Shown here: one piece after another, positions 25,816 through 49,362 of the stretch
Numbering within the stretch: the first letter of the stretch is position 1
Layout: the number at the start of each line of letters is the position of its first letter
Origin: Candidatus Latescibacterota bacterium
Lineage (GTDB): Bacteria; Latescibacterota; UBA2968; GCA-2709665
Assembly (NCBI GenBank): GCA_965226795.1
Contig: CBDDDZ010000003.1
Location: 1-64,000, forward strand
Reading direction: 5' to 3'
DNA: 64,000 bases
Translations under genes and position numbers: made by a program
Notes under the pieces: generated by a model
What the model was told of the DNA's origin: nothing
Database searches by the model: none
Seen by the model: only the letters and a program-made list of their open reading frames with translations

Positions 25816-25827
25816 CACAGGGGATCA

Positions 25828-27372
25828 ATGCCCATGTCCTCGGCTGGCCCTCGCTTATGGCCTCTCTATTTGCTCGGAGGAGGCGTCGTCCTGGCGCTCC
25901 TGTTGATCTGGTTGCCCGAAGCCCCCCATCGCCAGCAACAGGTCATGCGCACCATGGCCGCCTTCATTCTCGCGATTTTCTTTGCTTTGCTCTGGTTGCT
26001 CTTCGCGTCGCGGCTGGCCTGGGGACAACGCCTGCGCTATTTCGGCGGTATCGTCCTCGTCATTGCGCTTGGTATCGGGTTTTTTCGCGTTGAGGGTATG
26101 AGCGGCGACTTCGCACCGATCCTCGAATGGCGTTGGAGTACTGAGGACGAAGCAGGCGCTGTCGAAGGAGGGGACGCCACCGCGCTCGACGCCCGCGATT
26201 GGCCGCAATTTCTCGGCCCCGAGCGCAACAACCGCCTCCGCGGCGTTCACCTCGAACGCGACTGGACCAAGCACCCGCCGCGCGAAATCTGGCGTCGCCC
26301 CGTCGGCGCAGCTTGGTCTTCCTTTGCCATTGTCGGCGGCCGGGCCGTAACCCAGGAGCAACACGGCCCCGAGGAGCAGGTCGTCTGCTACGACTTGGCA
26401 ACGGGCCGCAAGCTCTGGCAACACGCCGACTCGACTCGCTACGAGACCGCCATTGCCGGCATCGGCCCGCGCGCTACGCCCACCATCGCTGGAGACCGGG
26501 TTTTCACGCTGGGCGCTACTGGCATCCTCAACTGCCTGGATCTGGCCAGCGGGGCGCTGTTTTGGTCGCGGGACATTCTCGCCGACAATCAGGCTAAGGC
26601 CCATATATGGGGCATTAGCTGTTCGCCGTTGGTCCTCGACACCTTGGTCGTGGTCAGTGCCGGAGGCCCGGATGAGCGCTCGCTAGTGGCCTATCACCGC
26701 CAAAACGGCGCATTTGTCTGGGGCGGGGGCACAGACAAGGCCGGCTTCAGCTCGCCGCGTCTGGTCACGTTGGCTGGACGCGAGCAGATCCTGATCTTCA
26801 ACAACCACAGCGTTGTCGCGCACGATCCGCAGAGCGGAGCTCCCCTCTGGCGTCAGCCTTGGGATCGGGCCGAATGCATTGCCAATCCCCTGCCCTTGCC
26901 CGGGGACCGGGTTCTGGTCTCCACCGGCTATGGCATTGGAGCCAAGCTGTATCAAGTGAATGCCGCGCCCAACGGCGAGTTGACGACCGATATCGTCTGG
27001 AAAAGCCCCCGGATCAAGGCCAAATTTGCCAACATGGTCTATCGCGATGGTTTTGTCTATGGCCTCGACGACGGGGTGCTGGTCTGCCTCGACCCGCAAG
27101 ACGGCAAGCGTCGCTGGAAGCGCGGGCGCTACGGCCACGGCCAGCTCATCCTGATAGACGATATCCTGCTGATAATGAGCGAATCGGGTGACGTGTTACT
27201 GGTCGAGGCTCGCCCCGACCGCCACGTAGAACTAGCGCGCATGACGGCCTTCGACGGCAAAACTTGGAATCCCCCGGCCTTTGCCACACCCTATCTGTTA
27301 GTGCGCACGGACAGCGAGGCCGCCTGCTACGAGCTGGCGCTTGCAAACGGTGCTCAGGCGCAGCGCTTCTAA
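25828..27372 (+). CDS. Membrane-anchored PQQ-like beta-propeller repeat protein
   Basis: Three N-terminal TM segments; DWPQFLGPERN, GPRATP, repeated ATG/ASG..LW blades, KTWNPP. Confidence 0.9.
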   Translation: MPMSSAGPRLWPLYLLGGGVVLALLLIWLPEAPHRQQQVMRTMAAFILAIFFALLWLLFASRLAWGQRLRYFGGIVLVIALGIGFFRVEGMSGDFAPILEWRWSTEDEAGAVEGGDATALDARDWPQFLGPERNNRLRGVHLERDWTKHPPREIWRRPVGAAWSSFAIVGGRAVTQEQHGPEEQVVCYDLATGRKLWQHADSTRYETAIAGIGPRATPTIAGDRVFTLGATGILNCLDLASGALFWSRDILADNQAKAHIWGISCSPLVLDTLVVVSAGGPDERSLVAYHRQNGAFVWGGGTDKAGFSSPRLVTLAGREQILIFNNHSVVAHDPQSGAPLWRQPWDRAECIANPLPLPGDRVLVSTGYGIGAKLYQVNAAPNGELTTDIVWKSPRIKAKFANMVYRDGFVYGLDDGVLVCLDPQDGKRRWKRGRYGHGQLILIDDILLIMSESGDVLLVEARPDRHVELARMTAFDGKTWNPPAFATPYLLVRTDSEAACYELALANGAQAQRF

Positions 27373-27444
27373 CAGGGCCATGGATTTTCCCGCTACCCCG
27401 CCAATCGCGACTCTAATAACCGGGCACTTGTATGGAGGAAAATC

Positions 27445-27740
27445 ATGGCAGACTATTCGCACATTCAAAAGCCGGACTTGGGCTACCGCCATGAGTCCGG
27501 CCCGGGTGCTTGGGAGGTGCTCGACTACGAGCCCTTCATGGATATCAACCGGCACCTGATTGCCACCGACGAGTTGACGATCCACCGCTCGGCTGCCATC
27601 ATCCGCCGGACCGGTTCGGCTCCCGTAGGGTGGCACACCGATTGGCGCGGCTATTCGACCGAAATCAAGCACTCGGGCGACGTCCTCAATCGCGGACTGT
27701 GGCCGTCGGGCAAGTGGTTCTACCTGACCGGTTCGCGGCG
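27445..27740 (+). pseudogene. PhyH family fragment
   Basis: GWHTDW and KWFYLTG present; breaks off before the PGSH region and runs into the opposite-strand gene. Confidence 0.6.
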
Positions 27741-27761
27741 ACGAAATTACTCATTCGGACC

Positions 27762-28487
27762 TCACTGCGTCAGCGAATTCAAGTGTTCGAGAATTTCTTC
27801 CTGTTCGGCCAAATCAAACTGATTCGAGCCGATGTACATATATCTGATAGTGCCGAAGCTATCAATGATAAACGTCGCCGGGCGGGCAATGCTGTTGCTG
27901 AGATTGTGATCCGCCAGGCCGATCCAGTTGTGTAAAGGATAGCCGAAATTGTCGATGATGAACGTCGCGGGGCGGACGATGTTGTAAGCGAGGTTGTGCA
28001 TCGCCAGGCCGAACCAGTGATATACCCCATAACTCTTGATGATGCTCCAGTCTTCATCCGCCAAAAGAGGATAGGTGATGCCACTGCGTTCGGCGTATTC
28101 GCGCAGTTCGCAAAGCTGCTGCCCTGCGGCGATGGCAATAGATGTCGCGTTACGTTCGGCGTACGCGTCTGTATGTTCTTGCACTGTCGCCAACTGACGA
28201 CGGCTTCTCCTTCACCAGGTCCCCCGAAAAAACGTCAGAACGACGTGTTCCTTTTCCCGATGCGATGCCAGCGACACGTATTGTTTCTGATGCGAGGGGA
28301 GGGTAAATAAGGGGGCCGTATCGCCGACGCTGAGGACCCGAAGCTTGTACCGCGCAGTGAACCGCCGGCGCTTCGCCTTCTCTGACACTTCCGGGTCAGG
28401 GCGGGGCGCCTCGGTAGCAGTCCCTTCGCTCCGCTCCGGGACTGCTACCGACACCTGCTCCTGTCGGCCGTTGTCCATACTCATCAT
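27762..28487 (-). CDS. Second AhpC/TSA putative selenoprotein (TGA 28212-28214), N-terminus replaced in frame by an IS3 OrfA fragment
   Basis: ORFs 28212..28487 and 27762..28193 are in one frame separated by TGA in FFRGTW-U-RRSRRQL; same downstream hairpin as copy 1. Confidence 0.75.
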
Positions 28488-28558
28488 CTCTTGCTCTCCT
28501 CTCTGCCCTCAAGACTACACTAAACTTGGATGGTGAGTTGTCTCACTCTATATTGGCA
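28335..28558 (-). mobile_element. IS3-family left-end remnant (terminal IR plus 5' orfA)
   Basis: PDPEVSEKAKRRRFTARYKLRVL is typical IS3 OrfA; minus-strand TGCCAATATAGAGTGAGACA from 28558 is an IR-like end starting with TG. Confidence 0.65.
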
Positions 28559-28644
28559 CGTAGGGATATAATATTTACATTTGACAAACGATCTCCAAAA
28601 GGCTATATCATAAGTAGGAAGTTAGCCAACAAAAGGGATCGGAA

Positions 28645-29265
28645 ATGGAACAGAAAAAGACGACATACAAGCCGATTAAGGATATGAGTATTTTCCAATT
28701 TAGCAAGCGGTTTCCGAATGAAGCTGTTGCCATATCTTATGTCGAAAACCTGCGATGGAAAGATGGGATTTACTGTCCGCATTGTGGGGTTATCGGCAAT
28801 GTTCAGAAAACGAAAAACGGCAAGCCGCAACCTTATCGCTGTCGAGAATGCCGCAAGCATTTTTCAGTAAGGACCGGAACGATCATGGCGCAGTCCAACC
28901 TGCGATTGACAACGTTTCTCAATGCTATCTATCTTATCATCACACATCGCAAGGGTGTGCCGAGCACTATGCTTGCCAGGGAGTTGGGTGTTACGCAAAA
29001 GACAGCATGGCATCTGGCCCACAGAATTCGTAAAGCGTTGGAGATGAAGGGCGGTTTGTTCTCCGGACCGGTAGAGGTTGACGAAACCTATATTGGCGGC
29101 AAGGAACGGAACAAACATTCTTCCAAGAAGTTGCATGCTGGCCGTGGTACTGTTGGCAAGACTGCGGTTGTGGCAGTGCGAGATCGTGAAGATGGTAAGG
29201 TTAAAGCCAGGCTGGTACAGGGAACGGATAAAAGGAAGTGGACCCCATCGTCAAGACCAATTTGA
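28645..29265 (+). mobile_element. IS1595-family transposase, 3' truncated
   Basis: CPHC..CREC zinc ribbon, FSVRTGT, HTH (LARELGVTQKTAW), VEVDETYIGG; the TD/E catalytic part is absent. Confidence 0.9.
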
Positions 29266-29406
29266 GGCGAATTTAAGGTGGATATGTTTTTGGTTTTCGA
29301 TAGGGTTCTTCTTTGCGGCCCGTGCAACCGGCTGAAGAGCAATGTGTATACGCTTTCAGGGTTAAGGCGGGAGAACAAGAAGCGGAGATATTTGTACAAC
29401 GGATAA
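29235..29406 (+). pseudogene. Degenerate HNH endonuclease C-terminal fragment
   Basis: EVDPIV..GG followed (frameshifted) by DRVLLCGPCNRLKSN, matching the HNH pattern vDHi..GG..N..LLC..CN..K. Confidence 0.6.
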
Positions 29407-29418
29407 AGGGGGTACAAG

Positions 29419-29625
29419 ATGGGTGCTGTTACCGTTGTGATGGGTTTGATTAATCGAGTAGTAAAAGGGGAGCGTCCTGAGGTTGTCGTTCGAGAGGCGG
29501 AGGAAGATCCCTTTCTGGCCCGATCTCTTCAGATTGATGAGGATATTCGTACCGGGCGGAACCGTCCGTTATCACCGGAGGAACAGCGCCAGTTTATTGA
29601 ACGAGTAAGAAGGGGCGGGAAGTGA
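29419..29625 (+). CDS. Small protein, probable antitoxin
   Basis: 68 aa, GTGA overlap with the downstream RelE-like ORF; ends DEDIRTGRNRPLSPEE. Confidence 0.55.
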   Translation: MGAVTVVMGLINRVVKGERPEVVVREAEEDPFLARSLQIDEDIRTGRNRPLSPEEQRQFIERVRRGGK

Positions 29626-29984
29626 ATGAGGGGCGCGAGAGGCAACGGACCAGAAAAGCAGAGACGCCCGTTGAACAACCCAAACCGGAAGCACCACCGG
29701 TAGAGCAAGAGGTTATCATCTATCGGCGTGTTTCACGGTTTATAGAGAGGAAATTGCAACCAAAAGTACAGACACGTGCGCTTGCGGCGATTGATTCTCT
29801 CAAAGTCCCCACAAATATACGGGGGTCGGTAAAGATAGAGGGACGACCTGCCAACGATCCCATGTTCAGGATTGATAAAGATGCTTATAGGATCTTCTGC
29901 AAGCGTCTTGAGGGCAAGGTTCATGTGGTAGACATGGAGAATCGGCAAGGTGCTTATGACAAGGGTCGCACGAGGAAACGCTGA
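29622..29984 (+). CDS. RelE/ParE-family toxin
   Basis: KLQPKVQTRALAAIDSL..KIEG..FRIDKDAYRIF..VVDMENRQGAY follows the RelE pattern. Confidence 0.65.
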   Translation: MNEGRERQRTRKAETPVEQPKPEAPPVEQEVIIYRRVSRFIERKLQPKVQTRALAAIDSLKVPTNIRGSVKIEGRPANDPMFRIDKDAYRIFCKRLEGKVHVVDMENRQGAYDKGRTRKR

Positions 29985-30039
29985 TCTCCACAAGATGGGG
30001 ACAGTGATATTAGATTCCATAGACGTTGCGGGGAAGGCA

Positions 30040-30234
30040 ATGAAAAAGACAGGCAAGCGCAGGGCGGCAACCAAAGGAAGAATTAAGGTTGCAAAGTCTT
30101 CGTACAGTCCCACGAAGGCGGAGACGGAAGAGTTGGTAAAGATTCCAAAGAAGTTGGAAGGTGCGTCTTTTGACGCTTTTGTGAGTGTTGCGATAAGGCC
30201 AGTTGAAGTTAAGGAGTCGGACAAGCCGAAATAA
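30040..30234 (+). CDS. Small basic hypothetical protein (IS passenger-like)
   Basis: GGGGAAGG upstream; 64 aa, YSPTKAETEE motif. Confidence 0.45.
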   Translation: MKKTGKRRAATKGRIKVAKSSYSPTKAETEELVKIPKKLEGASFDAFVSVAIRPVEVKESDKPK

Positions 30235-30528
30235 TTAGATTTTTCTCGTGTGCAAACTTCACTTCCCGTCGGCTAACATTGTATATAGTTCCCATTGTAA
30301 AAGGATTTCGGCGCGTTTCAGGCGTCAACCCGATACTCCCGCCACCCGTCTCCCCGGCAGTCCCGCTCCTGCGGAGCGCAGACGCCCGAACCTGTCCCAT
30401 TTCCCGCCAGATTCCCCTTGCCTGTGAACGAGAGAACGTCGTATTTTCTTCCTATACGCCAACAATACACCAGGCTTGCAACGGTTCCGTAGGGTTGCGC
30501 CATATCCAGAACATCTAACGGGAGGTAA

Positions 30529-32664
<2,136 letters not shown>

Positions 32665-32825
32665 TCTCAGCGGGTGCTCGCAACGGCGGCCTTCGAGCAT
32701 CCGAGATCGGCGCAGATTGAAGGGCGTCAGTCGACAACGTGCCATTGACGTAGAGCAATTCGTCCCGAAGCCGCACTTCGGCCTGCAGTGCATACTCGAT
32801 GAAGGTAGTAGAAGAAAGGACCACG

Positions 32826-33299
32826 ATGGCAATCACGCTGGGGGCAGGCGATGTTGCCCCGGATTTCGCGCTCGCCGACCAGGACGGCAATATCCATTCG
32901 CTGGCCGAATACAGGGGCCGGACGGTCGTCCTCTACTTCTATCCGCGCGATGAGACCCCGGGTTGTACGACTCAGGCCTGCTCTTTTCGGGATGGTCACG
33001 CCGAAATCCTGGCCGAGGGTGCAATCGTGCTCGGTGTTTCGAGAGACGACGCCGATTCGCACCGGGCTTTCCGCGAACGCCACCGGCTGCCGTTTCCCCT
33101 GCTGGTAGATGCCGAAGCCACCGTCTCCGAGCGCTATGGCGCCTGGGGTGAGAAAGTCCTCTATGGTCGTCGGTTCCAGGGAATGACGCGGTCGACGTTC
33201 ATCATTGGCCCCAATGGAATACTGACCAGGGTTTGGAAACGGGCCAGGCCCGCCGAGCACGGCGCGGCGGTGCTAAAGGCGCTGCGCGAGTCCGCTTAA
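32826..33299 (+). CDS. bcp: Thioredoxin-dependent peroxiredoxin (Bcp/PrxQ)
   Basis: VLYFYPRDETPGCTTQACSFRD, GVSRD, RSTFII. Confidence 0.93.
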   Translation: MAITLGAGDVAPDFALADQDGNIHSLAEYRGRTVVLYFYPRDETPGCTTQACSFRDGHAEILAEGAIVLGVSRDDADSHRAFRERHRLPFPLLVDAEATVSERYGAWGEKVLYGRRFQGMTRSTFIIGPNGILTRVWKRARPAEHGAAVLKALRESA

Positions 33300-33461
33300 G
33301 CTCTTTGCGTTGGCCGGCACACGAACTTCGCGCCGGGTTCGAGCTTAGCCTGATCAATTCATGAATTGTCACGGTTAGCTGGTTTATTCGCGAATCAATC
33401 ATTTCCACCGCCGCACAATGGCTTTTCTGGATCCGCGAGCCGTCGCGGAAGCGTGTTTGAA

Positions 33462-33720
33462 GGTGGGGTAGACATTCCTGTCTGCCCTTCTCGTGTTTAC
33501 GCAGCAGGAGAGGGACATTTCGTTCGACTCCCCCTCTCCTCGCAGGAGAGGGGGCCGGGGGGAGAGGTCCTTCTGCCGGAATGCTGACAGAAGTGATCCA
33601 ATAGATAGCGCCATCGTTTGCCCGTGGGGGAGACGGCGGCGCGTCGTGGTGTGTCCGGACACAGGATTCCGAGGTTCCGGTTTGATGTATGTGAGCAGAC
33701 AAGAATGTCCGCTCCACCCT
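33462..33720. repeat. REPIN-like composite: inverted AGACATTCCTGTCTG units around a CCCTCTCC..GGAGAGGG palindrome
   Basis: GGGGTAGACATTCCTGTCTGCCC (about 33465) and its inverse GCAGACAAGAATGTCCGCTCC (about 33695); CCCCCTCTCCTCGCAGGAGAGGGGG at about 33530. Confidence 0.65.
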
Positions 33721-34094
33721 TTCAAGCTCTCGTTCGATGTTTACATCACAGCCTATCAGGCTGCTCTCTTCGAAAATCCATCATCTCCACGACCGCACAA
33801 TGGCTTGTAGAACCGTTGAGGAAGTGGATGTGAGCCCTTTCAAGCCTTTTTTCGAGGTATCGCTTGAGCGCGTCATCCATCTGTGACAGATCGCCTGTAC
33901 TGGCATCCACTTCCCGAAACCGCAAGGCGCCACTGTCACCGACCTGCTTGCGGTGACGCACATGCTGGCTGGTCAGGACGCGACCGTCGAAGGCGCCTTC
34001 CATATTCCTGGCGCATTGACTTGGAAGTGCGACCCTGTCATAATTACACTGCCATAGAGAATGACCCCGTCACTGGAGGAAGGGGCATTCGACT

Positions 34095-34340
34095 ATGATT
34101 GAATGGCTTGGTATCGGCCACCTTTTCGAGCTTTCCCGGACGGAAGCGATTGCGGGGTTTTTCACCCCGCTGGTGATCTTCGCCGTGTTTTTCCTGGCGC
34201 AGCTCATACTGCCTGGAAAGTGGGTCCCCGGCTACGTCATCAATCCGAAGACCAGCGAGCCCCGCACCTATCGGCTGAACGGTATTCTGGTATTTGCAAT
34301 CGCGCTGATCGTGTGGGCGTTCGAGCTCACCGGGCTGACG
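34095..34340 (+). pseudogene. 5' fragment of an ERG4/ERG24 sterol-reductase-like membrane protein
   Basis: LILPGKWVPGYV..YRLNG motif plus TM segments; similarity stops after about 80 codons, then a katG-like piece follows. Confidence 0.55.
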
Positions 34341-34603
34341 TGCGGTCCACACGGACGCGTCGCGGGCGTGGACCGACGGGGAGTCGTCTGCCGTACTCTA
34401 ATGTTCTGGCCCGGAAATAGATTGCCAAAATTCGGCCGATCAGAAGCAGCAAAAACAGCTATCAGCCGTCAGCTTGAACCAAAAACCCAATCAGTTGACA
34501 TCAGCGCCGTGAAGAGACGAGACCAGAACGGGCGCAGCGAGACGGGATGAACCGGCGGGATAATAGTGAGATATTTTCGGGTTAGAACATTGGGACTGCC
34601 TTG

Positions 34604-35506
34604 ATGATAAGGCTTTTTTTTGTCACCATTGTGGCGTTGTCAAGCATGTTTTCCTGTTCAGGAAATGACGACATGCCACTCGATGCACCCGCAACAACTG
34701 GTCTATTTGCACAAACACTTTCAAATAATGGTATGACGAGACAATATATCTTGTATGTGCCTGATTTTCACGATGAAGCTTCGGCAGTTCCCCTGATGCT
34801 TAACTTTCACGGATATGGTCAGACTGCAGACCAATATTTGAATTTCGCAGATATGCGGTCTTTGGCAGATACGGAAAAATTTATTCTGGTTTATCCTCAA
34901 GGCACCCTGCTGGATGGAGACCCGCACTGGAATGCCGGCTTAGAATCAGATACCAACAAGAGTAATGCGGATGATTTTGGCTTTGTGGAAGCACTGATCA
35001 ATGAAATTTCCTCGAATTACAAGATTGACCCGGCAAGAGTATATTCCTGTGGTTTCTCAAACGGCGCTTTCTTTACGTATGCACTTGCCTGCTATCATAG
35101 CGATAAAATAGCGGCAATAGGTTCTGTTGCCGGAACGATGATGGAGGAAACATATAACAACTGTAACCCATCACACCCTACGGCCATGATAAATATTCAT
35201 GGTACATCAGACGCCTATGTCCCCTATGGCGGGTGGAATGAAGGATTGAAATCAATTGACGACGTGCTTGCTTATTGGACAGGTTTCAATAATACCAGTG
35301 CTACTCCCACAGTAAATCGCATAAATGATGGTGCAACAACAATCGAACGCTATTCTTATACAGATGGCGACGACAATATTTCTGTTGAGCACTATAAGGT
35401 TATCGACGGAGGACATGTCTGGTTTGATATCAGCTACGACGGCTCTGATACAAGTGCTTTAGTCTGGAATTTTGTGTCAAGATATGACATAAATGGATTG
35501 AGGTAA
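34604..35506 (+). CDS. PHB depolymerase/LpqC-like esterase, probable lipoprotein
   Basis: Lipobox FSC; LNFHG, YPQG, GFSNG nucleophile elbow, IHGTSD, GGHVW; AT-rich. Confidence 0.9.
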   Translation: MIRLFFVTIVALSSMFSCSGNDDMPLDAPATTGLFAQTLSNNGMTRQYILYVPDFHDEASAVPLMLNFHGYGQTADQYLNFADMRSLADTEKFILVYPQGTLLDGDPHWNAGLESDTNKSNADDFGFVEALINEISSNYKIDPARVYSCGFSNGAFFTYALACYHSDKIAAIGSVAGTMMEETYNNCNPSHPTAMINIHGTSDAYVPYGGWNEGLKSIDDVLAYWTGFNNTSATPTVNRINDGATTIERYSYTDGDDNISVEHYKVIDGGHVWFDISYDGSDTSALVWNFVSRYDINGLR

Positions 35507-35706
35507 TTCGACGGGATCCAGGCATACCCCTCCAATGCCAACGTGGGCGGCCTGCTCCGCAGCCGCCCACGACAATAATACGCCGGGGACCGAATTCAAA
35601 CACCAAGTTCCCTATATGGATCCAACCATCGACATCAAGGGCATCCAGAAATTCCACTTGCTATACTTTTCCCGGATACGACAGGCGTCGCGGGTATACA
35701 TCGACT

Positions 35707-36444
35707 TCAATGCTTATATGCCACATGTCGATCTTCGTATTTTCCCTTTAGAAACCTTTCCGGATTCAGTTTTTCCGGCAAATAATGCCAGGCCGTACTA
35801 TAGCGCGTGCGATTGCTGTGGTTATCATACGCACCGTGCAAGAGACTGGCGGAAAACAGAACAACCGTGCCAGCGGGAATGACCAGATCCACAGCCCGCG
35901 ATTCATCGACCTCCGTCCAACTGCCATGCCTGCCTGGATTTTTGCGGTACTCGACAATCTTGCCTATCCGGTGGCTGCCGGGCACCACCCGCAAACACCC
36001 ATTCTCCACATCTAAATCTTCCAGATAAATTCCGCAACTGACAATGCGATCCGTATCGGTGCCAAAATAATAATTATCCTGATGCCAGCTCGTTGACGTG
36101 CCGCCGTTGGGCAACTTCGGAAAAAACTTGGTGCCAAACACATCGATATTTTCACCAATCAATACTGCGACGCGGTCTAAAATCGCCGGTTCACGCGCCA
36201 GTTTCAACACGCGGGCATCGACCACGCAAACCCCCTGAACTTTGTGCAACAAACCCGCCCGGGGTTTACCGCGTTCGTCCAACTCGAGCGCCCAGTGCGG
36301 CGTCTCCTCGGTCATTTTACGCCCCTCTGCGACCAGTTCATCAAACACGCGCTTGTAATGGGCCAACCGCTCGCCTTGTATCAGGGCTTCAAAAACGAGA
36401 TACCCATCTTCTCGAAACTGCCGGTCCTGTTCGTCAGTTAACAT
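35707..36444 (-). CDS. Phytanoyl-CoA dioxygenase (PhyH) family protein
   Basis: QFREDGYL, WHQD, ENGCLRVVPGSH, LLHGA..N..R. Confidence 0.92.
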   Translation of the reverse strand: MLTDEQDRQFREDGYLVFEALIQGERLAHYKRVFDELVAEGRKMTEETPHWALELDERGKPRAGLLHKVQGVCVVDARVLKLAREPAILDRVAVLIGENIDVFGTKFFPKLPNGGTSTSWHQDNYYFGTDTDRIVSCGIYLEDLDVENGCLRVVPGSHRIGKIVEYRKNPGRHGSWTEVDESRAVDLVIPAGTVVLFSASLLHGAYDNHSNRTRYSTAWHYLPEKLNPERFLKGKYEDRHVAYKH

Positions 36445-36656
36445 TAAGACCTCCTCAAATTCGCTCGGCTACTTCGGTCGCGCAAACGCGACCAGGGGTG
36501 ATTACGCCAACCAGTAGCCAGACATAGGACCTTTTTTTGGCTATATTAAGCCGGGAATCAAGGGTACGAGCGCTTGAACGCGCCCCGGCCGGGGACTTGC
36601 CCTATACGCTGACATTTCGGACGTTAACTTAGGTAAGATCAGAAAGGAAAAGACCG

Positions 36657-37394
36657 GTGTCAAGAATCGAACCCGCATCCCGACTAACCCGCCTGAATGG
36701 TGCCAGGATCGGACTCCTGGACCCGGGAAAGCGTACTGCGGGAGCCGTTCTCAAGGCAGTTGGTGAGCGGCTCGCGGCAGAGTACGACGCGAATGTGGTC
36801 GGACCCTGGAGAAAGTCATCGCCCTACCGCGTCTGCTCAAAGAAGCTTCTGGAGGAGATCGTTCCACATTGCGACGGGCTTGTCATGGGGGTCGTGGATT
36901 GATGTGGCGCCAGTTCGTGCAGTTTGCACGATATGCTGGAGTTCGAGTTGAGAGGCATACCGACCGCCTACATCACGGCCGCAGGAAGGGTTCCAATGGT
37001 CGAACGCGATGGTGATGGCTTCAGCCTTTCACATGCAACAGGAAACTACCTGGTTGAAGGATGGGAGGACTCCGGACCGCAGTCAGACGAGGTCCATCGC
37101 AGGCTGATTCACTTCGGAGTACACCGCAGGATGAGGATGAGCGATGTGAAGGAGGGGGATCGGGTTCGCTACGGCGGTAAGGACCTGCGATGGGAGTATC
37201 CTCGAATGGAGCTGGAAGCCAGAATCAGGCCTGCCGGAGCCGGCGCCTGGTCGAGCACCTTTGACGGCGTCGCAGGCTACAGGAATATCGAACTGCGCGC
37301 GACCGCTGCACCCGTGGAAGGCGATGAATTCGATGAAAGCGTGGAAGAGGCCGTCCCACAGGTGGTGTCGATTTTGACGGGTGGGAGGGCGTGA
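36657..37394 (+). CDS. UGSC-family putative selenoprotein, Sec at TGA 36900-36902
   Basis: ORFs 36657..36902 and 36924..37394 are in frame; LNGARIGLLDPGK..CDGLVMGVVD-U-CGASSCSLHDMLEFELRGIPT matches the UGSC family; hairpin 36915-36931. Confidence 0.8.
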
Positions 37395-37590
37395 GTTCAC
37401 GATCCGCCGTCGCAGTCTCGACACCAACAACCTCCTCGAAAAACCGAACCGATGACGCACGATCCGTGTTCAGATGCTCCGACCAGGCAAACGCGCCTCC
37501 CTCCGACATAACTCCGCATCCCACGAACTCGTCGGGCTCCCACAGCGTCGTCACACAACCAGTCGGGTCCGCGAAGACAGGCGCACGCAT
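37391..37590 (-). pseudogene. VOC/glyoxalase family internal fragment
   Basis: VFADPTGCVTTLWEP..GAFAWSEHLNTD..RFFEEVVG. Confidence 0.55.
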
Positions 37591-40136: not shown

Positions 40137-40141
40137 CCTAG

Positions 40142-41838
40142 CCTGAAAAATTCACAAAAAAGGTAGTTTCCTTACCCAAGTCATTGTATTATATTGTGGT
40201 TACGCAAATAACCATAACACAATGAAACAGGAGGAAACTACCGTGGGAGTTCAAGATACACATCACAGGGTGTCTTTCGCAAGTCTTTCTGGTAAGCCGG
40301 TAGAAGCCACCTTCGACGGAGGCATCCTGACCAGCGACAGCGGGGTGATGCTGCTTCGTGAGGTGGAGGCCAGAACCGGGATTTTGCATAGGATGGTTGC
40401 GGCGCTCACGGATCGTCGACATCAAAGTTACGTACATCATCAGATGATGGATCTGGTCAAACAACGTGTGTTTCAGATGGCCTGTGGATATGAGGACGCG
40501 AACGATTGCAATACGTTGCGCGAGGATCCCGGCTTCAAGGCGGCCTGTGATCGGTTGCCGCTTTCCGGTGCGGATCTGGCCAGTCAACCCACGATGAGTC
40601 GGTTCGAGAACCGGATCAGCAGAACCGATTTGTATCGGATCGCCAAGGCCTTTGCGGATGTGTTTGTCGCCTCGTATGAGGAACCGCCCGAAGCCATTCT
40701 GTTGGATATCGATGACACGGAAGACAAGGTGTATGGGTCTCAACAGTTGTCGTTGTTCAATGCGTATTTCAATGGCTATTGCTACCAGCCCCTGCATATC
40801 TATGAAGGCCAGACGGGCAAGTTGATCACGACGGTCTTGCGTCCTGGCAGGCGGCCCACGGGTAAAGAGATCGTCACCATTCTCAAACGGGTGATCGCCT
40901 ACCTGCGCCGCGCCTGGCCCGACGTGGCGATCCTGTTGCGCGGCGATGCTCATTTTTCGTGTCCGGAAGTGCACGCGTTGTGTGAAGACCAGAATGTGTA
41001 TTTTGTCCTCGGACAAAACGGCAACGCCAAACTGCTGCGCTCGGCACAGTCCTTGATAGACCAGGCCAAAACGCTGTATGCCGCTTCGGGAAAACCCGTG
41101 CGCCTTTATCGCTGTTGGGACTATCAGGCGAAAACCTGGGCTTGTCCACAACGCATCATCTGCAAGGCGGAAGTCACCCCGCAAGGAGACAATATCCGAT
41201 TCGTGGTCACCAACCTAAAGCGCGCCCAACCGTCATTCATCTACAAAACCGCCTATTGCGCACGCGGCAGGATGGAAAACTTCATCAAGAATCACAAGAC
41301 CTTTCTCCATTCCGATCGCACCTCTTGTCACATCTTCCAGGCCAATCACTTCCGTCTCTTTCTCCACAGCGCCGCCTATGTCCTGATGCACGCCTTGGCA
41401 CAAACCGGGTTGCGCGGCACGAAGTGGACGAACGCACAGTTCAATACCCTGCAAAACCGTCTCTTGAAAGTCGCCGGGCGCGTTTGTGAGTTGAAAACAA
41501 AAATCAGGTTCCATCTGCCAACGGCGTTTCCACTCAAACACCTTTATCGCAAGATCCTCTACAACCTGGCAACGTGTGTTCCATAACGCATCGTCGAGCT
41601 GACCGCGCCTTCACGTTTGGACCGACACGACCAACAGCCACGGAGACGTCTGTGCTCTTGACAGCGGAATTCAGAGCAAGCTGACGCCACGGAGCAAACG
41701 TGCTGCCAGCAGGCGCCGCCGACACGGCCGGGACACGCCAAATCCGTCTCAGCCCGTGCTCTTTCGTTTCTCGTCTCACTCGGAAGCTCTTTCTGCTTCC
41801 TCATACTGCATTCCGTGACGATTCATGAATAGGTCAGG
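40142..41838 (+). mobile_element. Complete IS1380-family element
   Basis: Ends CCTGAAAAATTCAC and (rc) CCTGACCTATTCAT; CTAG on both flanks (40138-40141, 41839-41842). Confidence 0.93.
40222..41586 (+). CDS. IS1380 transposase
   Basis: FDGGILTSDSG, GYEDAND, LASQPTMSRFEN, LDIDDT, RGDAHF, YCARGRMENFIK. Confidence 0.97.
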   Translation: MKQEETTVGVQDTHHRVSFASLSGKPVEATFDGGILTSDSGVMLLREVEARTGILHRMVAALTDRRHQSYVHHQMMDLVKQRVFQMACGYEDANDCNTLREDPGFKAACDRLPLSGADLASQPTMSRFENRISRTDLYRIAKAFADVFVASYEEPPEAILLDIDDTEDKVYGSQQLSLFNAYFNGYCYQPLHIYEGQTGKLITTVLRPGRRPTGKEIVTILKRVIAYLRRAWPDVAILLRGDAHFSCPEVHALCEDQNVYFVLGQNGNAKLLRSAQSLIDQAKTLYAASGKPVRLYRCWDYQAKTWACPQRIICKAEVTPQGDNIRFVVTNLKRAQPSFIYKTAYCARGRMENFIKNHKTFLHSDRTSCHIFQANHFRLFLHSAAYVLMHALAQTGLRGTKWTNAQFNTLQNRLLKVAGRVCELKTKIRFHLPTAFPLKHLYRKILYNLATCVP

Positions 41839-41844
41839 CTAGAA

Positions 41845-42609
41845 ATGAATCGGGCGGAATGGGGCGAGGGCCACCGTTATCTGGCTGCCAGGAGGAGAAA
41901 GGGCCCGGACTGGATTGGCAAGTTCCGCGACGGCGGGACGACATTCACTGAGAGGGAAGTGGAACTTCTCGGCGACGTCTCCGGACTGGATGTGTTGCAA
42001 CTGAGCTGCGGAGGCGACGCGAGTCAGGCGTTTTCTTTCGCAAACCTGGGCGCCAGCGTAACGGCCTGTGATTTCAGCCCGGTCGCCATCGAGGAGGCGA
42101 AACAAAACGCGGCCAGGGTTGGTCTGGCCGTGCGGTTCGTCCTTGCCGACGCTCAACGTCTCTCGACGATAGGAGACGGTGCGTTCGACCTTGTACATGC
42201 AGATGGCAACCTGTGGTACTACGAAGACCTTCCCACGGCATGCCGAAACTGGTATCGAGTTCTACGGGCAAACGGCCGATTGTTCCTGCATGAGAACCAC
42301 CCACTCACGCTGTGGTGCCTGGAAGCGGATGAGACCGACGGCAGCCTGAGAGTCGTTCGGAGCTACGGCGACAGGAGGCCGGAATATTCACCGTTTCAAA
42401 TTGACGATTTCGTCTCGAAGGAATCCGACGAAGTGGAGTTTCCCCACACGTTGGCGGACATTTTGAATGCCGTCGTGCAAACCGGCTTCGTCCTGGAGCA
42501 AATGGTGGAATGCAATCTGAGCCAGGCCGGTTTTCCGATAGAGGGACTGGGTCGGTGCGCGGAGAAGCTGCCTCACGACTTCTACGTGCTGGCTCGGAAG
42601 GTTCGCTGA
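41845..42609 (+). CDS. Class I SAM-dependent methyltransferase, possibly 5' truncated by the IS
   Basis: LGDVSGLDVLQLSCGG, VTACDFS, FDLV, VLRANGRL..HP, HTLADILNA. Confidence 0.85.
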   Translation: MNRAEWGEGHRYLAARRRKGPDWIGKFRDGGTTFTEREVELLGDVSGLDVLQLSCGGDASQAFSFANLGASVTACDFSPVAIEEAKQNAARVGLAVRFVLADAQRLSTIGDGAFDLVHADGNLWYYEDLPTACRNWYRVLRANGRLFLHENHPLTLWCLEADETDGSLRVVRSYGDRRPEYSPFQIDDFVSKESDEVEFPHTLADILNAVVQTGFVLEQMVECNLSQAGFPIEGLGRCAEKLPHDFYVLARKVR

Positions 42610-42680
42610 AGCAACGCCACGGCTCCCACCCTGTCAATCCCGGCGCATGACGCCGTCACCGTGGCGCCCTCCCTCGTTCC

Positions 42681-44549
42681 TTATTCGCATACCCCGTAGC
42701 TGTAGACGTGGGATCCGCTCCCGAAGTAGATGCGTCCGTTCAACCAGTCCCCGCCGAAACCGATGGGTACGGGAGACGCAGCCAGCATGGCGAGGCTGTG
42801 GTCATTCGGGTTTACGCGGACGATCCCTTTGACGAACAGCATGTAGACATCGCCATCCGGGCCGGAGACGAAGACACGCGGGCCCTGCTGCATCGCGGTA
42901 AGCCCGAAACGGTGGACGGTCGTTTCGCTGCGCAGGATTTCCCTGGTATCGGGATCGAAGGCGAAAAAACGTTCCCCGTCGGCAACGCCGTAGACCAGGC
43001 CGTCCGGACCCGGACAGAGATCCGTGTACGATTGCACACCGGGGAATGCGACTTCGCGCCACAGGATCCGTCGGGTGTCCGGATCCATCACGAAGAGTTC
43101 GGCTTCTTCCGCCTTCCGCTCGCCGCCCGTGCCGGGATTGGTGGTGGACCCGCCCAGGAGGTTGCCGTCCGGAAGGGCGATCAGGCTCATCGTGCTGTGA
43201 TCGGGGAGAATATCGGTGTGCTCGAGCAGTACGTACGAGCCGGTTTCCCGATCCCAGAATAGCATCCCGCCGCCCGTGTGACCGTAATCCGGTGTGCCCG
43301 CCAGGATGACGGTCTTGCCGTCCGGGTGGGCGAGCAATGTATGCGGGCGGTTGATGGCGGGTTTGCATTCGGTCAGGAAACGTGGGTTGGAACCGGGATT
43401 GTCTTTTTTGGTAGGGACCCAGGGTCTGGCGGGGTCCCATTCCAGCAGAAAACCGCCGGTGTATCCGCCGGCGAAAAAACGGTCCGTCTGCCGGGCAACG
43501 GTGTTCCACTGCCCATGGTTGGGGCGATTCGTCCAACTGTCGGCTTCAGGATCGTAGCTGAAGAAGCGCGCGGGAAAGGTGGTGCCCCCGCAGATGGTGT
43601 TGTCCGGAGCCGCGGCAAGGCCCATCACGTGGGCGCCTTCGGTCGTGTATTCGAAGTCAACTTCCCGGATTTCTCCGGATACGGGATTCTCTACGGACAG
43701 GGTGCGGTTGGCCAGGTCGCACGTCAGGACGCGTTTGCCATCGGGGAAATCCCGGTGGAAAAGGCCTTGGCTGCCCGTGACGATCGGTTTTTCGTTCTGT
43801 GCTTCCAGCGACCCGACAGGTTTACGCGTACCCTTGTAGAGTTCAAGCCAGTTATGGGAATTGTCGCCGGCATGTCCGTATACCTTCCCGTTGAGGTCGC
43901 GGTAGACGTGGCTGCTACCCTGGACGCGTTCGCTTTCGGATAGCATGGGTTCCGCAGTGCCGGAATCCGGTTCCAGGCAGATGATCTGGCTGGCGGTGCT
44001 TCCGATACCGAAGTAGATCCATCCGGCCTCGTCGGCGGCAACCGAACGCGGGTATTGCCGCCAGTTCTGTTTGTAGACGTGACCGTAATCCCTGAACGCG
44101 CGGGTTCGGGGATCGTAAGACAGAACGCCGCTATCCGGATGGGTGGCCGCCCAGATTAGGCCGCTGTCGTCTTCCGTCATACCCATGGCCATCTGCGGTA
44201 CGGTTTCGTGGCAGAACGTAAACGCCCGCTCGCCGGGATCGAAGGCCAGGAAGTGGCTGTGAAAGTGGGTACAGAAGAGGTTGCCGCTGGAGAGAAGGGA
44301 CGAAAAGGGGCACGCATTGAAGTCATCGCCCGGAGGAAAAAGCAGGGGGTACTGTTCGCTGGCGCCGGTCTCCGCGTCGATCAGCAGGAGGGCGTAACAG
44401 CCCCGACGATCGTACAACCAGAGCAGCACCACGTTTCGGCCTTGTCCGTCCACGGTGGCGACAAGCCCCCGGCTGTTGCCGATGTCAGTCGCGACGCCGT
44501 GGTGCCGGAAACCGTTGCCCAGATCCTGTGACACTTGCATTGGCGGCAT
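42681..44549 (-). CDS. Beta-propeller repeat hypothetical protein
   Basis: GAGGAG before ATG 44549; repeated blade-like units (FDP/YDP, GxIYFG, PDG). Confidence 0.8.
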   Translation of the reverse strand: MPPMQVSQDLGNGFRHHGVATDIGNSRGLVATVDGQGRNVVLLWLYDRRGCYALLLIDAETGASEQYPLLFPPGDDFNACPFSSLLSSGNLFCTHFHSHFLAFDPGERAFTFCHETVPQMAMGMTEDDSGLIWAATHPDSGVLSYDPRTRAFRDYGHVYKQNWRQYPRSVAADEAGWIYFGIGSTASQIICLEPDSGTAEPMLSESERVQGSSHVYRDLNGKVYGHAGDNSHNWLELYKGTRKPVGSLEAQNEKPIVTGSQGLFHRDFPDGKRVLTCDLANRTLSVENPVSGEIREVDFEYTTEGAHVMGLAAAPDNTICGGTTFPARFFSYDPEADSWTNRPNHGQWNTVARQTDRFFAGGYTGGFLLEWDPARPWVPTKKDNPGSNPRFLTECKPAINRPHTLLAHPDGKTVILAGTPDYGHTGGGMLFWDRETGSYVLLEHTDILPDHSTMSLIALPDGNLLGGSTTNPGTGGERKAEEAELFVMDPDTRRILWREVAFPGVQSYTDLCPGPDGLVYGVADGERFFAFDPDTREILRSETTVHRFGLTAMQQGPRVFVSGPDGDVYMLFVKGIVRVNPNDHSLAMLAASPVPIGFGGDWLNGRIYFGSGSHVYSYGVCE

Positions 44550-44595
44550 CTCCTCTTTAGCAGTCCGTTGAAAAAGTTGCTCTGCAGGCGAGGCT

Positions 44596-45951
44596 TCAGC
44601 CCGCGTCCGAAAGTCGTCCTTCCATCTCCTTGCGAAGGCGGAAAACGTCGCTGTCTTCGTCGAGTTCCACGTCGGATCGAAGGATCGGCTGGCCCGCAGT
44701 AATTCCACGTTTCAGCCTGAGTGTGTGCGCCAGGCCAATGGGCAGAATATCGCCCTTCACCGCGCCGGCCGCTGGCATGAGTTTGCCGTAAACACGATAT
44801 CCGCCCTCGCCGTCCAAGATTTCTCCCTCGTCAAGATCGCGTTTCGCGGTGGCAACGACGTCTCCGACAAACGCACGGGGGCAGCCGGTCGCTTCGCCGC
44901 GCACCCCCGCGCGCATCACGCTGGTGGCAAGTTCCATGCCGACCAGATGGTAGGGACGGTAGATGGCCGTATAACGTCCGGAGGCATCCGTCGGCAGGCC
45001 GTATTCGGCGAAACAGCGCCGGATATAGTTGCCCGACCCTTCGATGGTGACGTACACGCCCCAGCGAAGGTGCGGGTCGACCGGCGTTCCGTCCGGTTGC
45101 ACGCAGGAGACGACCTCGACCGTTCCCTTGTGCGAGAGTCGACCGCCCGCGCTCCGGGGCCGGCAGACCTCCGGCAGGCGGTCGATTTCGCATGGCGGGA
45201 AGTTCAGACCCTCCGGCTGCGGTTCCAGCCCGGTGGCATTTGAGACAGCGGCCATTTCGATGGCCGATTTCGTTCCGTCCAGGAAGGAATTGAACATCCT
45301 GGGGTTCATCCCGCCGCGAGCCGCGGTTTCCGCGTCAATCCCGTAGTGGTCCCAGACGGTATCGGGCGTCGATGCATGGTAGGCCGGCCGATGTTTCGTG
45401 CCTTTACCGGCGCAGACGACGTCGAATCCGTTGGTCCTCGCCCATTCGACGAGTTCACAAATCAAAGCAGGCTGGTCGCCATAGGCAAGCGAGTAGACGA
45501 GGCCGGCGGATTCCGCCCGTTGCGCCAGTACGGGGCCGGCGAGGACGTCCGCTTCGACGTTGACCATGACCAGATGGCGGCCTTCGTCGATGGCTTTAAG
45601 GGCGTAGTGGATGCCCGCGAGTGGATTGCCGGTGGCTTCGACCACCACGTCGAGTCCATCCGCGCAAACCAAGGCATCGCCGTCGTCGGTAAGGTGGGTG
45701 GCCCCGGTCTTAAGGGCATTGTGGAAGTCCGTTGCGGCGAATTGGCTGGGCGGCCACTCCGCGCGCCCGAGGGCTTCGCGCGCCCGGTCAATGGAGACAT
45801 CGGCCACACCCAGGACATGCAGATCCGGAATGCGCCGGGCCTGGGCCAGGAACATCGTGCCGAATTTTCCGGCGCCGATGAGACCCACCCGAACGGGATT
45901 CCCGGATTCGGCGCGCGCCGATTTCTTTCGCGGGCTACGAGCGTTATGCAT
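44596..45951 (-). CDS. NAD(P)-dependent oxidoreductase, homoserine-dehydrogenase-like with C-terminal SAF domain
   Basis: GLIGAGKFG, VMVNVEAD, GDQPA, DGTKSAIEM, YRPYHL, DVVATAKRDL..LDGEGG. Confidence 0.9.
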   Translation of the reverse strand: MHNARSPRKKSARAESGNPVRVGLIGAGKFGTMFLAQARRIPDLHVLGVADVSIDRAREALGRAEWPPSQFAATDFHNALKTGATHLTDDGDALVCADGLDVVVEATGNPLAGIHYALKAIDEGRHLVMVNVEADVLAGPVLAQRAESAGLVYSLAYGDQPALICELVEWARTNGFDVVCAGKGTKHRPAYHASTPDTVWDHYGIDAETAARGGMNPRMFNSFLDGTKSAIEMAAVSNATGLEPQPEGLNFPPCEIDRLPEVCRPRSAGGRLSHKGTVEVVSCVQPDGTPVDPHLRWGVYVTIEGSGNYIRRCFAEYGLPTDASGRYTAIYRPYHLVGMELATSVMRAGVRGEATGCPRAFVGDVVATAKRDLDEGEILDGEGGYRVYGKLMPAAGAVKGDILPIGLAHTLRLKRGITAGQPILRSDVELDEDSDVFRLRKEMEGRLSDAG

Positions 45952-46050
45952 ACCGCACCTTGAAATGCGAAAAGCCTTGGGTGCCGCGGAGAAATACAAT
46001 GGACCAGGTCCCGGATCGAATTCCAGGTTCATCCGAGACCGGATATGCCA

Positions 46051-46896
46051 CTAACGACCGTCTTCGAAGCAGGCGCCCATGTCCTCCAGGAACTGTCCGG
46101 ACTCTACCCTGCGATACCGTTCCACGTGACAATGGCCGGTTCGAGAGTCTTCCACCAGGTCCGCAGCCGAGGAATGCCCCGCCGACAACCCTTCAAGTTG
46201 GGACAGCCTGTAACGGCTTGTCTGTACAACCTCGTTCACGTTCGATCTGGCGCGGATTTCGACATCGGGTTCCGCGGATCTGTAGTAATGCACGGATTTC
46301 AGGTACGTCCGCATCATCTTGAACGCGTAATCCGGAAGACGCGACTCGCGCCCGCCGGGAACGAAGGACTCGGGCCAGAGGAGTCGATTGATCTGGAGAT
46401 CGAACGCCTTCTTCAGCGCGCCTGAAACGCTGCCGTCAGACGGAACCCACTTCGAGTCGGGCCAGACGTCCAGGTTGCCCCACGGCCATCCCAGACGTTC
46501 CTTATCCAGTGTAAGGCGACCGCTGCCGGTATTGACGCCTTTTTCCGAAACGTCGAGAATGGCGAAGTGCTGCGGATAAATGAAGAAGTCATCCCCCCGT
46601 GCCCGCCAGGCATCGTAAAAGGCCGTGGTTAGCGCCAGAATCGCGTACGAGGCGTGGAGGATGCCGTCTTCGAGGCAGGGCGAGACGATTCCCGTACGAT
46701 CTGACTCAACGTAATCGGGACAGAATTCCTTGAAGGGGACGGACGTAAGGCCGTTCCCCCCACACTTCCAATATTCGAAATCCCGTGCGGCAAGGACTCT
46801 GCTGGTATGCATATCGGGTAACCTCGCGAACAGCGATAAACCGGCACTGCGTTGGGGCGAGTCTTCCACGGGCGGCGTGGATTCGGGAATCCTCAA
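46051..46896 (-). CDS. Hypothetical protein
   Basis: 281-aa ORF overlapping the upstream stop codon in a co-oriented string. Confidence 0.7.
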   Translation of the reverse strand: MRIPESTPPVEDSPQRSAGLSLFARLPDMHTSRVLAARDFEYWKCGGNGLTSVPFKEFCPDYVESDRTGIVSPCLEDGILHASYAILALTTAFYDAWRARGDDFFIYPQHFAILDVSEKGVNTGSGRLTLDKERLGWPWGNLDVWPDSKWVPSDGSVSGALKKAFDLQINRLLWPESFVPGGRESRLPDYAFKMMRTYLKSVHYYRSAEPDVEIRARSNVNEVVQTSRYRLSQLEGLSAGHSSAADLVEDSRTGHCHVERYRRVESGQFLEDMGACFEDGR

Positions 46897-47612
46897 TTCG
46901 TCTCGCCGGAGGAAACAGCGTCGTTTTGAGGGACGTCACGTGCGTCCCGGATATGACCCCTCCGCACCGCCGACCTCATGGATCGATACATCGCGTAGAC
47001 GGAAATCAGGGCCCAGACCAGAGCAATCGGATAAGCCAGAAGCGGCGTGTCCCAATGCCGGGCGAGGATGCCCGCATCGGTGCGTTCGGTATACATCCAG
47101 AGATCGGTGCGGAAGTCGTAGAGGCTGTAAAGGCACAACATCACGCCGAGCCACGTGGCCACCCAACGCGCGACGCCTGGCAGCAGGACGGCCGGGATCA
47201 GAAGAAGGAGACCGCTCGCGATACCGAACATGAAATCGATGCTGGCCAGGGGTGTGTAGAGTACGGTCATACCGATGGCGAGGCCGCCGATCCCGGCAAG
47301 TAGAATGCGCTGCAGCAGCGGCCAGGAACTGACGAAAATGAAAAAGGCGCCCAGGAAAGCGGAACCGACGTAGCCGGCAGAGGCGATGACCGGAAAAATG
47401 CCGCCCCGGCTCTGCGCGTGGCCGGATTCGTCCCAGTTGACGCGGATTTCAAGGACTTCGCCCCCGGTTGCGAGGGCGGCGCCCGCGTGGCACATTTCGT
47501 GTACCAGGACCACGAAGACCCTGAAGGGTTTGATGAAGGGCGTGTCCCAGAACGCCAGCGCGACGATGGCGCAGACGATCGCGGGCCAGAAACGTTTGAG
47601 GGCTGCCAGCAT
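46893..47612 (-). CDS. M50 (M50B-like) membrane metallopeptidase
   Basis: HEMCH, TGG, ASAGY, TDA; multiple TM helices. Confidence 0.9.
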   Translation of the reverse strand: MLAALKRFWPAIVCAIVALAFWDTPFIKPFRVFVVLVHEMCHAGAALATGGEVLEIRVNWDESGHAQSRGGIFPVIASAGYVGSAFLGAFFIFVSSWPLLQRILLAGIGGLAIGMTVLYTPLASIDFMFGIASGLLLLIPAVLLPGVARWVATWLGVMLCLYSLYDFRTDLWMYTERTDAGILARHWDTPLLAYPIALVWALISVYAMYRSMRSAVRRGHIRDARDVPQNDAVSSGETN

Positions 47613-47614
47613 TT

Positions 47615-48337: not shown

Positions 48338-48372
48338 TTCGCGGCTCTCCTTATTTTCCTTCCCGGCACGAA

Positions 48373-49242: not shown

Positions 49243-49362
49243 TTCAAATTATCCAAGGTTTGCGCTTCGGTTTTTGCCTTGTCTCCCGTCTTACCTCTCG
49301 CGGCCTTTTTTTCCCTTTCTAACGTCTTCCGTCTCGCCTCTCCCGTCTTGCGTCTACCCGGT

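Follow-up and report, generated by a model that had tools for sequence, protein, structure and literature searches.

A UGSC-family selenoprotein gene of Latescibacterota with a predicted Obg C-terminal domain nested in its core

The gene, its in-frame TGA and the SECIS-type hairpin

This study examined a window of 64,000 nucleotides from a Candidatus Latescibacterota genome and focused on a gene on its forward strand at positions 36657..37394. The frame contains a single internal stop, the TGA at 36900..36902, on either side of which it reads GVVD and CGASSCSLHD; this confirmed the first-pass annotation of two open reading frames joined in one frame by a single TGA. Read through, the gene encodes a protein of 245 amino acids with the TGA as codon 82 (D-U-C-G-A-S-S-C-S-L-H-D), and it is best described as a selenoprotein gene consisting of a UGSC core and a nested Obg C-terminal (OCT) domain. 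A Shine-Dalgarno-like AAGGA, assigned by sequence, is located on the same strand at 36644..36648, 8 nt ahead of the GTG start. Relatives, several of which begin with ATG, also have a purine stretch of the AAGGA/GGAG type ahead of this start, and no Shine-Dalgarno-like motif was found ahead of the would-be start of the second half.

The results of the profile searches revealed that the two halves match consecutive positions of the Pfam UGSC family PF24696 (16-92, then 93-119). The joined protein scored 86.6 bits against a gathering cut-off of 25, which bears out the UGSC ancestry proposed earlier and makes it a member of that family; its score against the NCBIfam equivalog NF041046 (62 bits) was below the cut-off of 125. 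The N-terminal part of the core (residues 5-108, 36669..36980, + strand) covers PF24696 positions 16-119 with an E value of 2.8e-24 and corresponds to predicted strands 1-4 of the alpha/beta sheet in the secondary structure of the model. It is followed by the inserted domain (residues ~112-181, 36990..37199, + strand) and by a linker (residues 182-203, 37200..37265, + strand) that is modelled with low confidence and is shorter in one homolog branch; in the full model, pLDDT falls below 50 at residues 192-207. The C-terminal part of the core (residues 204-245, 37266..37391, + strand) supplies the last strand and a helix, which spans residues 223-241 in the model. The corresponding stretches of homologs match PF24696 positions 129-171, with scores of up to 33.4 bits (P0037).

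We compared the TGA codon across loci gathered by protein similarity, without a motif filter. In one set of 18 loci (L010-L027, the window itself accounting for two), every locus had a TGA followed by a Cys codon. In a second set of 23 (L048-L070, many of which repeat the same genomes), 22 did so, and the remaining locus does not cover the site. The codon is thus TGA in every insert-type locus covering the site, and the terminal stop of these loci, unlike the internal TGA, varies between TGA and TAA. All 12 uninterrupted insert-bearing homologs carry Cys at the position aligned with Sec, as judged from protein records, in which some of the "C" may be Sec. The residue at the TGA codon was accordingly TGA-encoded or Cys throughout and never Trp or Arg; moreover, the halves are contiguous in every locus covering the site, uninterrupted Cys forms exist, and no relative carries the halves as separate genes. 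Reading TGA as Trp in this genome was considered and rejected, TGA being the commonest end of its long open reading frames (3763 of 7017).

The source genome (95.9% complete) contains the whole set of genes sought for Sec incorporation, namely selA, selB, selC and a Sec-type selD. The selA (E 7.5e-169) and selB (E 2e-110) matches exceeded their cut-offs on contig C5, with a tRNA-Sec(TCA) gene beside them, and selD (C4:335792-336715) has its own in-frame TGA (C-G-U-A-A-K) and a SECIS-type hairpin. Of the 21 other carrier genomes, 20 also had a SelB match over the cut-off, and the exception is a genome that is 80% complete.

The hairpin TCGTGC-AGTTT-GCACGA reported in the first-pass annotation was located at 36915..36931 (+ strand), where 18 nt separate the TGA from AGTTT. 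The predicted fold has a stem of 7 bp and a GUU loop that lies 19 nt beyond the codon, with an energy of -8.2 kcal/mol. The bacterial SECIS rule given in the legend of Figure 2 of PMC13188914 comprises a loop of 3-9 nt with G in the first two places, a stem of 4-16 bp, a spacing of 16-37 nt and an energy of -7.5 or lower; the hairpin satisfied all four constraints as implemented in our own script rather than in bSECISearch. When 1500 ORF-ending TGAs sampled from the genome were put through the same script, 56 (3.7%) passed, and the folding energy alone was modest (z -1.06 for a 61-nt piece and z -2.63 for a 43-nt piece). The pattern of substitution was more telling. Among 25 distinct genes, codons 87-91 showed zero third-position differences, the minimum over 175 windows (median 0.31). 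Six codons encode invariant residues without any synonymous change, and three of them are codons 87-89. The motif used to select these genes constrained codons 81-86 together with two bases of codon 87 and left the tested third positions free; because of this selection, the set does not serve as a count of U-C conservation. Only two hairpin variants were seen, one with a loop change and one with a change from U-A to U-G. Sequence comparison therefore indicates that the SECIS-type hairpin is under selection.

Taken together, these findings make it almost certain that the in-frame TGA is read as selenocysteine and that the locus holds one gene, not two. The opposite reading, in which the TGA is a true stop and the locus comprises two short genes or a pseudogene, draws on the separate proteins of 81 and 148-156 amino acids recorded by gene callers, on the existence of partial copies and on a second in-frame TGA at codon 9 of one metagenomic copy (L066:471-1214), where the others have Arg and which represents either a nonsense change or a sequence error. 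We consider it extremely improbable: the codon is invariably TGA, with neither TAA nor TAG seen at the site, the SECIS is under selection in a genome with Sec machinery, the Cys forms are uninterrupted, the cut would fall within a single domain, and synonymous codon differences exceed non-synonymous ones in both halves. The annotation is corrected accordingly, gene callers having split the gene at UGA. RNA-library contigs from four runs of two studies cover the gene and also its neighbours, such contigs being unable to show transcription, and a promoter scan yielded one site against 0.5 expected, which is the chance level.

The inserted domain and the Obg tail

Between UGSC profile positions 119 and 130 the protein has 92 residues, a net gain of ~81, in agreement with the 80-90 extra residues claimed before. 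We conclude that residues ~112-181 of this insert very probably constitute an OCT (DUF1967) domain. At the sequence level, Pfam DUF1967 gave weak matches in seven of eight proteins (E 4.5e-4 to 0.05). The insert of the window protein itself remained below the cut-offs of both PF09269 (15.6 bits; cut-off 27) and TIGR03595 (14 bits; cut-off 37.65), and two of the 17 subfamily proteins scanned, P0043 and P0048, passed PF09269 at 29.2 bits against 27. A profile built from the insert only and searched against 1.84 billion proteins returned 22 matches, which comprised relatives of the gene and three Obg proteins: one full-length Obg, matched at tail residues 352-419 with an E value of 4.8e-5, and two Obg tail fragments. 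The matched Obg cluster is named Chloroflexota ObgE. A wider subfamily profile matched residues 344-411 of Thermus thermophilus Obg (1UDX; E 6.8e-4), and a narrower first profile found nothing useful in the PDB. An hhalign comparison of the insert with Obg tails gave 99%, a biased value, the tails having been chosen as insert matches.

Structure prediction led to the same identification. The insert model, built from an alignment without any Obg row, reached a pLDDT of 86.7, and its top VIA-align match was 1UDX residues 341-416 (Z 6.3, rmsd 3.4, 72 residues aligned), followed by a match at Z 3.4; 1UDX was the only chain among 48,161 to reach Z 5. Foldseek also ranked 1UDX first (probability 1.00, TM 0.67, E 0.043). 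The first-pass annotation had left the insert unidentified and proposed a structure prediction, and the predicted fold is that of OCT. Because the C-terminal stretches match UGSC positions 129-171, the OCT domain is nested within the UGSC core. In an alignment of 29 rows, the most conserved insert residues were G154 (29), H156 (28), R157 (28) and R160 (29); in the Obg tails examined, E or D stands at the position of H156.

No Pfam or NCBIfam match to the Obg fold or the G domain was found on the window protein. The Obg of the host has ~330 amino acids and is tail-less, and OCT was detected by TIGR03595 in none of the 41 Obg proteins of relatives, compared with six of 14 controls. Since the host Obg has no tail and those of its relatives give no OCT match, the insert was not derived from the present host Obg. 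A complex prediction of the insert with the tail-less host Obg (score 0.00, mark 0.32) spoke neither for nor against an interaction. In three proteins (P0072, P0075 and P0034), the first seven residues run straight into the central portion of OCT, the whole Sec-bearing part being deleted; P0072 has five members on two contigs.

Whether the OCT domain ties the gene to translation is a separate question. According to this reading, OCT is a portable targeting module outside Obg that brings the Sec centre, which in this clade would include a vicinal Sec-Cys pair, to the ribosome, RNA or the tail-less Obg, and the protein is a redox regulator that carries its Sec switch to the 50S subunit, RNA or tail-less Obg. 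That the insert is a whole OCT domain speaks for such a role, as does the tail-less state of the host Obg and its relatives set against the controls. However, related genera manage with a tail-less Obg in the absence of this gene, so the tail is dispensable; the gene has a patchy distribution and has moved sideways; no translation genes lie near it in the 25 neighbourhoods compared; and the insert has its invariant His where Obg has Glu or Asp. We regard both the regulator and the portable module as improbable. If true, a portable OCT would connect the redox chemistry of selenium with the control of translation in marine and sponge-associated Latescibacterota.

The cysteine motif, distribution and genomic context

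The codon of Cys83, which adjoins Sec (36903..36905, + strand), is TGC or TGT in all Sec-clade loci, and Cys83 is specific to that clade. Cys88 (+6; 36918..36920, + strand) is the last Cys of the family motif U-x-x-C-x-x-C and is a candidate resolving Cys; it is present in 25 of 25 distinct Sec-clade genes, its codon also lying within the SECIS stem. The window protein has Cys at +1 and Ala at +3, whereas ordinary UGSC has Gly at +1 and Cys at +3, so that the U-x-x-C motif is absent from the window protein (U-C-G-A). The +3 Cys is kept in all ordinary and fused UGSC loci examined. The 12 uninterrupted insert-bearing homologs have Cys at position 0 in 12 cases, at +6 in nine (it is missing in P0049, P0070 and P0073), at +1 in one and at +3 in one; these counts are not independent because seven of the 12 belong to one close clade. 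The only homolog with a +1 Cys, P0036, is also the only one with a +3 Cys, carries five Cys within eight residues and groups on a long branch with the Sec clade in the protein tree (97/81).

The proposal that the Cys had moved from +3 to +1 is not supported for the subfamily, in which each position is occupied in one of the 12 homologs. Loss of the +3 Cys and gain of the +1 Cys look like separate events, because P0036 has both and most homologs have neither. The different redox chemistry that had been deduced from the move is correspondingly weakened for the subfamily, the wider membership being mostly without both Cys. On the available alignments, the insert and the loss of the +3 Cys appear to define the subfamily, and the +1 Cys would be a later trait of one branch. 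The subfamily extends to metagenomic proteins at 29-44% identity. Further distant members, P0037, P0048 and P0052 among them, are recorded only as C-terminal halves that begin directly behind the motif, a form of record that suggests additional Sec forms.

Cys83 has nevertheless been considered as a redox centre in its own right, with an adjacent Sec82-Cys83 selenylsulfide ring replacing the U-x-x-C pair in this clade. Cys83 is found in every Sec-clade locus covering the site, with both TGC and TGT, and is conserved down to 58% identity with synonymous change, a pattern that a genuine role would fit; it also lies beyond the upper stem of the SECIS, so the RNA does not fix it. The +1 Cys forms constitute one starred clade (97/81), and Table 1 of PMC13188914 includes other bacterial selenoproteins in which Sec and Cys adjoin (C-U and U-C). 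However, 73 of the 179 codons scanned are as invariant as that of Cys83, 11 of the 12 uninterrupted insert-bearing homologs have Gly or Ala at +1, the sole +1 Cys homolog also has the +3 Cys, so that no "move" is needed, and Cys88 is the better conserved partner. This vicinal chemistry is therefore judged unlikely.

The subfamily profile matched 48 of 168 genomes of the phylum, and the insert type occurs in 22 of them, including the source genome. The other carriers are 13 of 14 genomes of the same genus, one of genus g5, six of another family and one of another class; records matching the close profile are titled Candidatus Latescibacterota metagenome-assembled genomes, with some labelled "Gemmatimonadota" or uncultured. 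The source genome has three copies of the gene. The copy on C2 is a true paralog (67%), and the copy on C4 may come from a second strain because it is 99% alike and lies within a duplicated block. Two partial copies are also present in G013. In the DNA tree, the genes of the window's genus form one clade (97/97), the six genes of family f4 were rejected as one clade (p-AU 0.00014), and the gene from the other class nests among the f4 genes. DNA likeness to the four other-family regions fetched, and to L061, is limited to the gene and at most ~90 bp upstream. From these sequence comparisons, vertical descent within the genus together with sideways spread of a single gene would fit the distribution. 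A protein-tree hint that the window gene itself had been acquired from another family was overruled by the DNA tree, which places it with its own genus (97/97). Viral contigs contained no relative of P0042, and the six plasmid records obtained match the N-terminal UGSC part only.

No neighbour gene was common to all loci in the 25 neighbourhoods, which thus reveal no conserved operon. In the window, the gene is flanked by a divergent PhyH-family dioxygenase gene, found nearby in 12 of the 25, and by a ~170-bp remnant of a convergent VOC/KbpA-like gene (37403..37574), of which several relatives have a longer version. A catalase-peroxidase-type gene and, after it, an AhpC/TSA peroxiredoxin gene are located 3.4-6 kb upstream (30532..33299); katG likewise lies close to the selenoprotein gene in two loci of another family, L055 and L060, with 81-85% DNA identity to the window. 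A functional link to katG and peroxiredoxin was rejected, katG being near in just three of the 25 neighbourhoods. Long blocks of the window are repeated at 96-99% identity, namely 25001-37574 at C4:879613-896967, which includes the selenoprotein gene, and 41839-50000 at C2:18458-10297; they may represent strain haplotypes or recent duplications. A DDE transposase element lies at 40137..41843, with two 100% identical and several diverged copies on C5.

We further examined the partner of ordinary UGSC proteins. In genus g6, a 471-aa protein encoded just upstream of ordinary UGSC matches the GOS "Unknown_1" domain, and this protein and ordinary UGSC occur together in the same 14 of 16 genomes. 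With one query protein, the partner was not found in the source genome, in any of the 14 same-genus genomes or in either of the two g5 genomes; among the 22 insert-type carriers it was not found in 18 and was present elsewhere in the genome in four. It was likewise not found in the neighbourhoods of the insert-type gene. A third UGSC type of ~548 aa with the motif H-U-S-T-C, found in other genera of the same order, is fused to Unknown_1 (L092-L097, in G020, G038, G037, G019 and G015); fused forms longer than 445 aa were covered by the insert profile alone, at 50% clustering. In G104, a fused UGSC-partner gene (L130:12570-14150), frameshifted past its UGSC part, lies ~4-5 kb from the insert-type gene. 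In g6, a gene recognised by eye as MsrB-like follows the partner-UGSC pair (L029:1963-2388 and L035:930-1325), a hint that ordinary UGSC operates in a redox or repair setting.

Working model and comparison with known systems

The full model of the protein reached a pLDDT of 75 and a pTM of 0.68 and was the only good one of five, the others having a pLDDT of 50-57. It predicts an alpha/beta fold with Sec82 after strand 3 and before a helix at residues 88-98, the motif loop at 84-86 having a pLDDT below 50. The structural matches are flavodoxin-like and Rossmann-like domains, 65 chains reaching Z 8, and thioredoxin was absent by title from the 50 best matches, families outside that list not being covered. 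Foldseek returned nothing at E 0.001 or better for the full model, and the ESM Atlas contained no usable match for P0042.

The best structural match was chain H of 8S7V, from the MCR activation complex (Z 10.8, rmsd 3.8, 130 residues aligned, chain range 66-207), and the next reached Z 9.7. To judge from its size, chain H is presumably Mmp7. PMC12176620 describes H84, C90 and C143 of Mmp7 as binding [8Fe-9S-C]-like clusters. The match raises the idea of a metal or iron-sulfur carrier or sensor with Sec82, Cys83, Cys88, His91 and perhaps His156 as ligands, and the five Cys in eight residues of P0036 would suit such a role. However, a Z of 10.8 is just ~1 above generic alpha/beta folds, the likeness is one of overall fold, with no sequence match to chain H, and several homologs retain a single motif Cys. 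A metal-binding function is thus doubtful.

As a whole model, put forward tentatively and rated somewhat short of probable, we propose that the protein is a stand-alone selenol oxidoreductase in which the OCT domain serves as a targeting part in place of a lost partner. By family analogy to the GrdB-type U-x-x-C-x-x-C motif, the attacking nucleophile would be Sec82, which follows the third strand where a helix starts. The chief residue to resolve oxidised Sec82 would be Cys88, which is retained across the subfamily, and Cys83, an add-on of one clade, may provide an extra vicinal selenylsulfide or a metal ligand. Ordinary UGSC would act together with the large Unknown_1 protein, either as the product of an adjacent gene or as part of a fusion. 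In the window protein, the OCT domain would have replaced the helix after strand 4 of the UGSC core and may pick its target through the near-invariant F-G-x-H-R-x-x-R surface. With this helix replaced and no partner in most carriers, the OCT domain has probably assumed the task of recognising the target.

The gene is a variant of a known and unexplained selenoprotein family, and its nested Obg tail is more surprising than its adjacent Cys. UGSC is described in passages of PMC2398784 and PMC13188914 as being among the most abundant marine selenoprotein families, with an undefined reaction. In a 2026 inventory of 119 prokaryotic selenoprotein families, Table 1 lists UGSC with the UGSC motif only and has no DUF1967 entry (PMC13188914), and the short motifs of the variant were not found in four GOS supplements (PMC2398784). 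Our literature search, whose coverage excluded most subscription journals, found no description in print of a UGSC variant with a nested OCT domain, which supports the earlier suggestion of a distinct, undescribed subfamily. It also found no description of an OCT domain in a protein other than Obg and nothing joining Latescibacterota with selenoproteins or selenoproteins with DUF1967. Background on the OCT domain is available in sections of PMC5765353, PMC3775756 and PMC9545696. The role of OCT in Obg is unsettled, so UGSC and OCT are two orphan parts in one small chain. The natural Cys forms are easy to express and offer a handle on OCT binding free of the GTPase; the same protein is a handle on the action of the UGSC core without its usual partner.

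Among known systems, GrdB/PrdB and ordinary UGSC are alike in having U-x-x-C-x-x-C with a helix and then a G-I-P strand behind it, the UxxCxxC motif being named in PMC13188914. Ordinary UGSC aligned with the GrdB/PrdB Sec motif in hhalign (84%, E 7.6e-6, 32 columns), whereas the window variant gave no significant match to GrdB/PrdB (PF07355; 3%) and differs from it in having lost the middle Cys and in lacking a reductase operon. A search for GRDB-family genes found the family in four of the 168 phylum genomes and not in the source genome. Four genomes (L134-L137; G141, G146, G163 and G160) have GrdB-like and PrdB-like genes with an in-frame TGA (U-G-S-C-N-R-C and U-P-N-C), and these PrdB-like genes carry a long C-terminal extension.

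The closest known relative is UGSC itself (PF24696/NF041046), with which the variant shares a homologous core on both sides of the insert, the Sec position ten residues before a conserved Asp, the last motif Cys and the same SECIS spacing; function is undefined in both. Ordinary UGSC has U-G-S-C, whereas the variant has U-C-G-A without U-x-x-C, possesses ~81 extra residues that make up the OCT domain and linker, and has the Unknown_1 partner neither beside it nor fused to it. In their 2008 report (PMC2398784), Zhang and Gladyshev called the family "likely Trx-like" and described the fusion with "Unknown_1"; the present model predicts a parallel alpha/beta sandwich in place of that thioredoxin-like guess. 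The inserted domain shares with Obg OCT (PF09269/TIGR03595; 1UDX 341-416) the predicted fold over 72 residues and the pattern G-x-x-R-x-L-R-x-x-G-x-K-x-G-D-x-V. Obg OCT, however, sits at the end of a GTPase and has Glu or Asp after the conserved Gly, whereas the copy in the window is nested in a redox-type domain and has His at that position.
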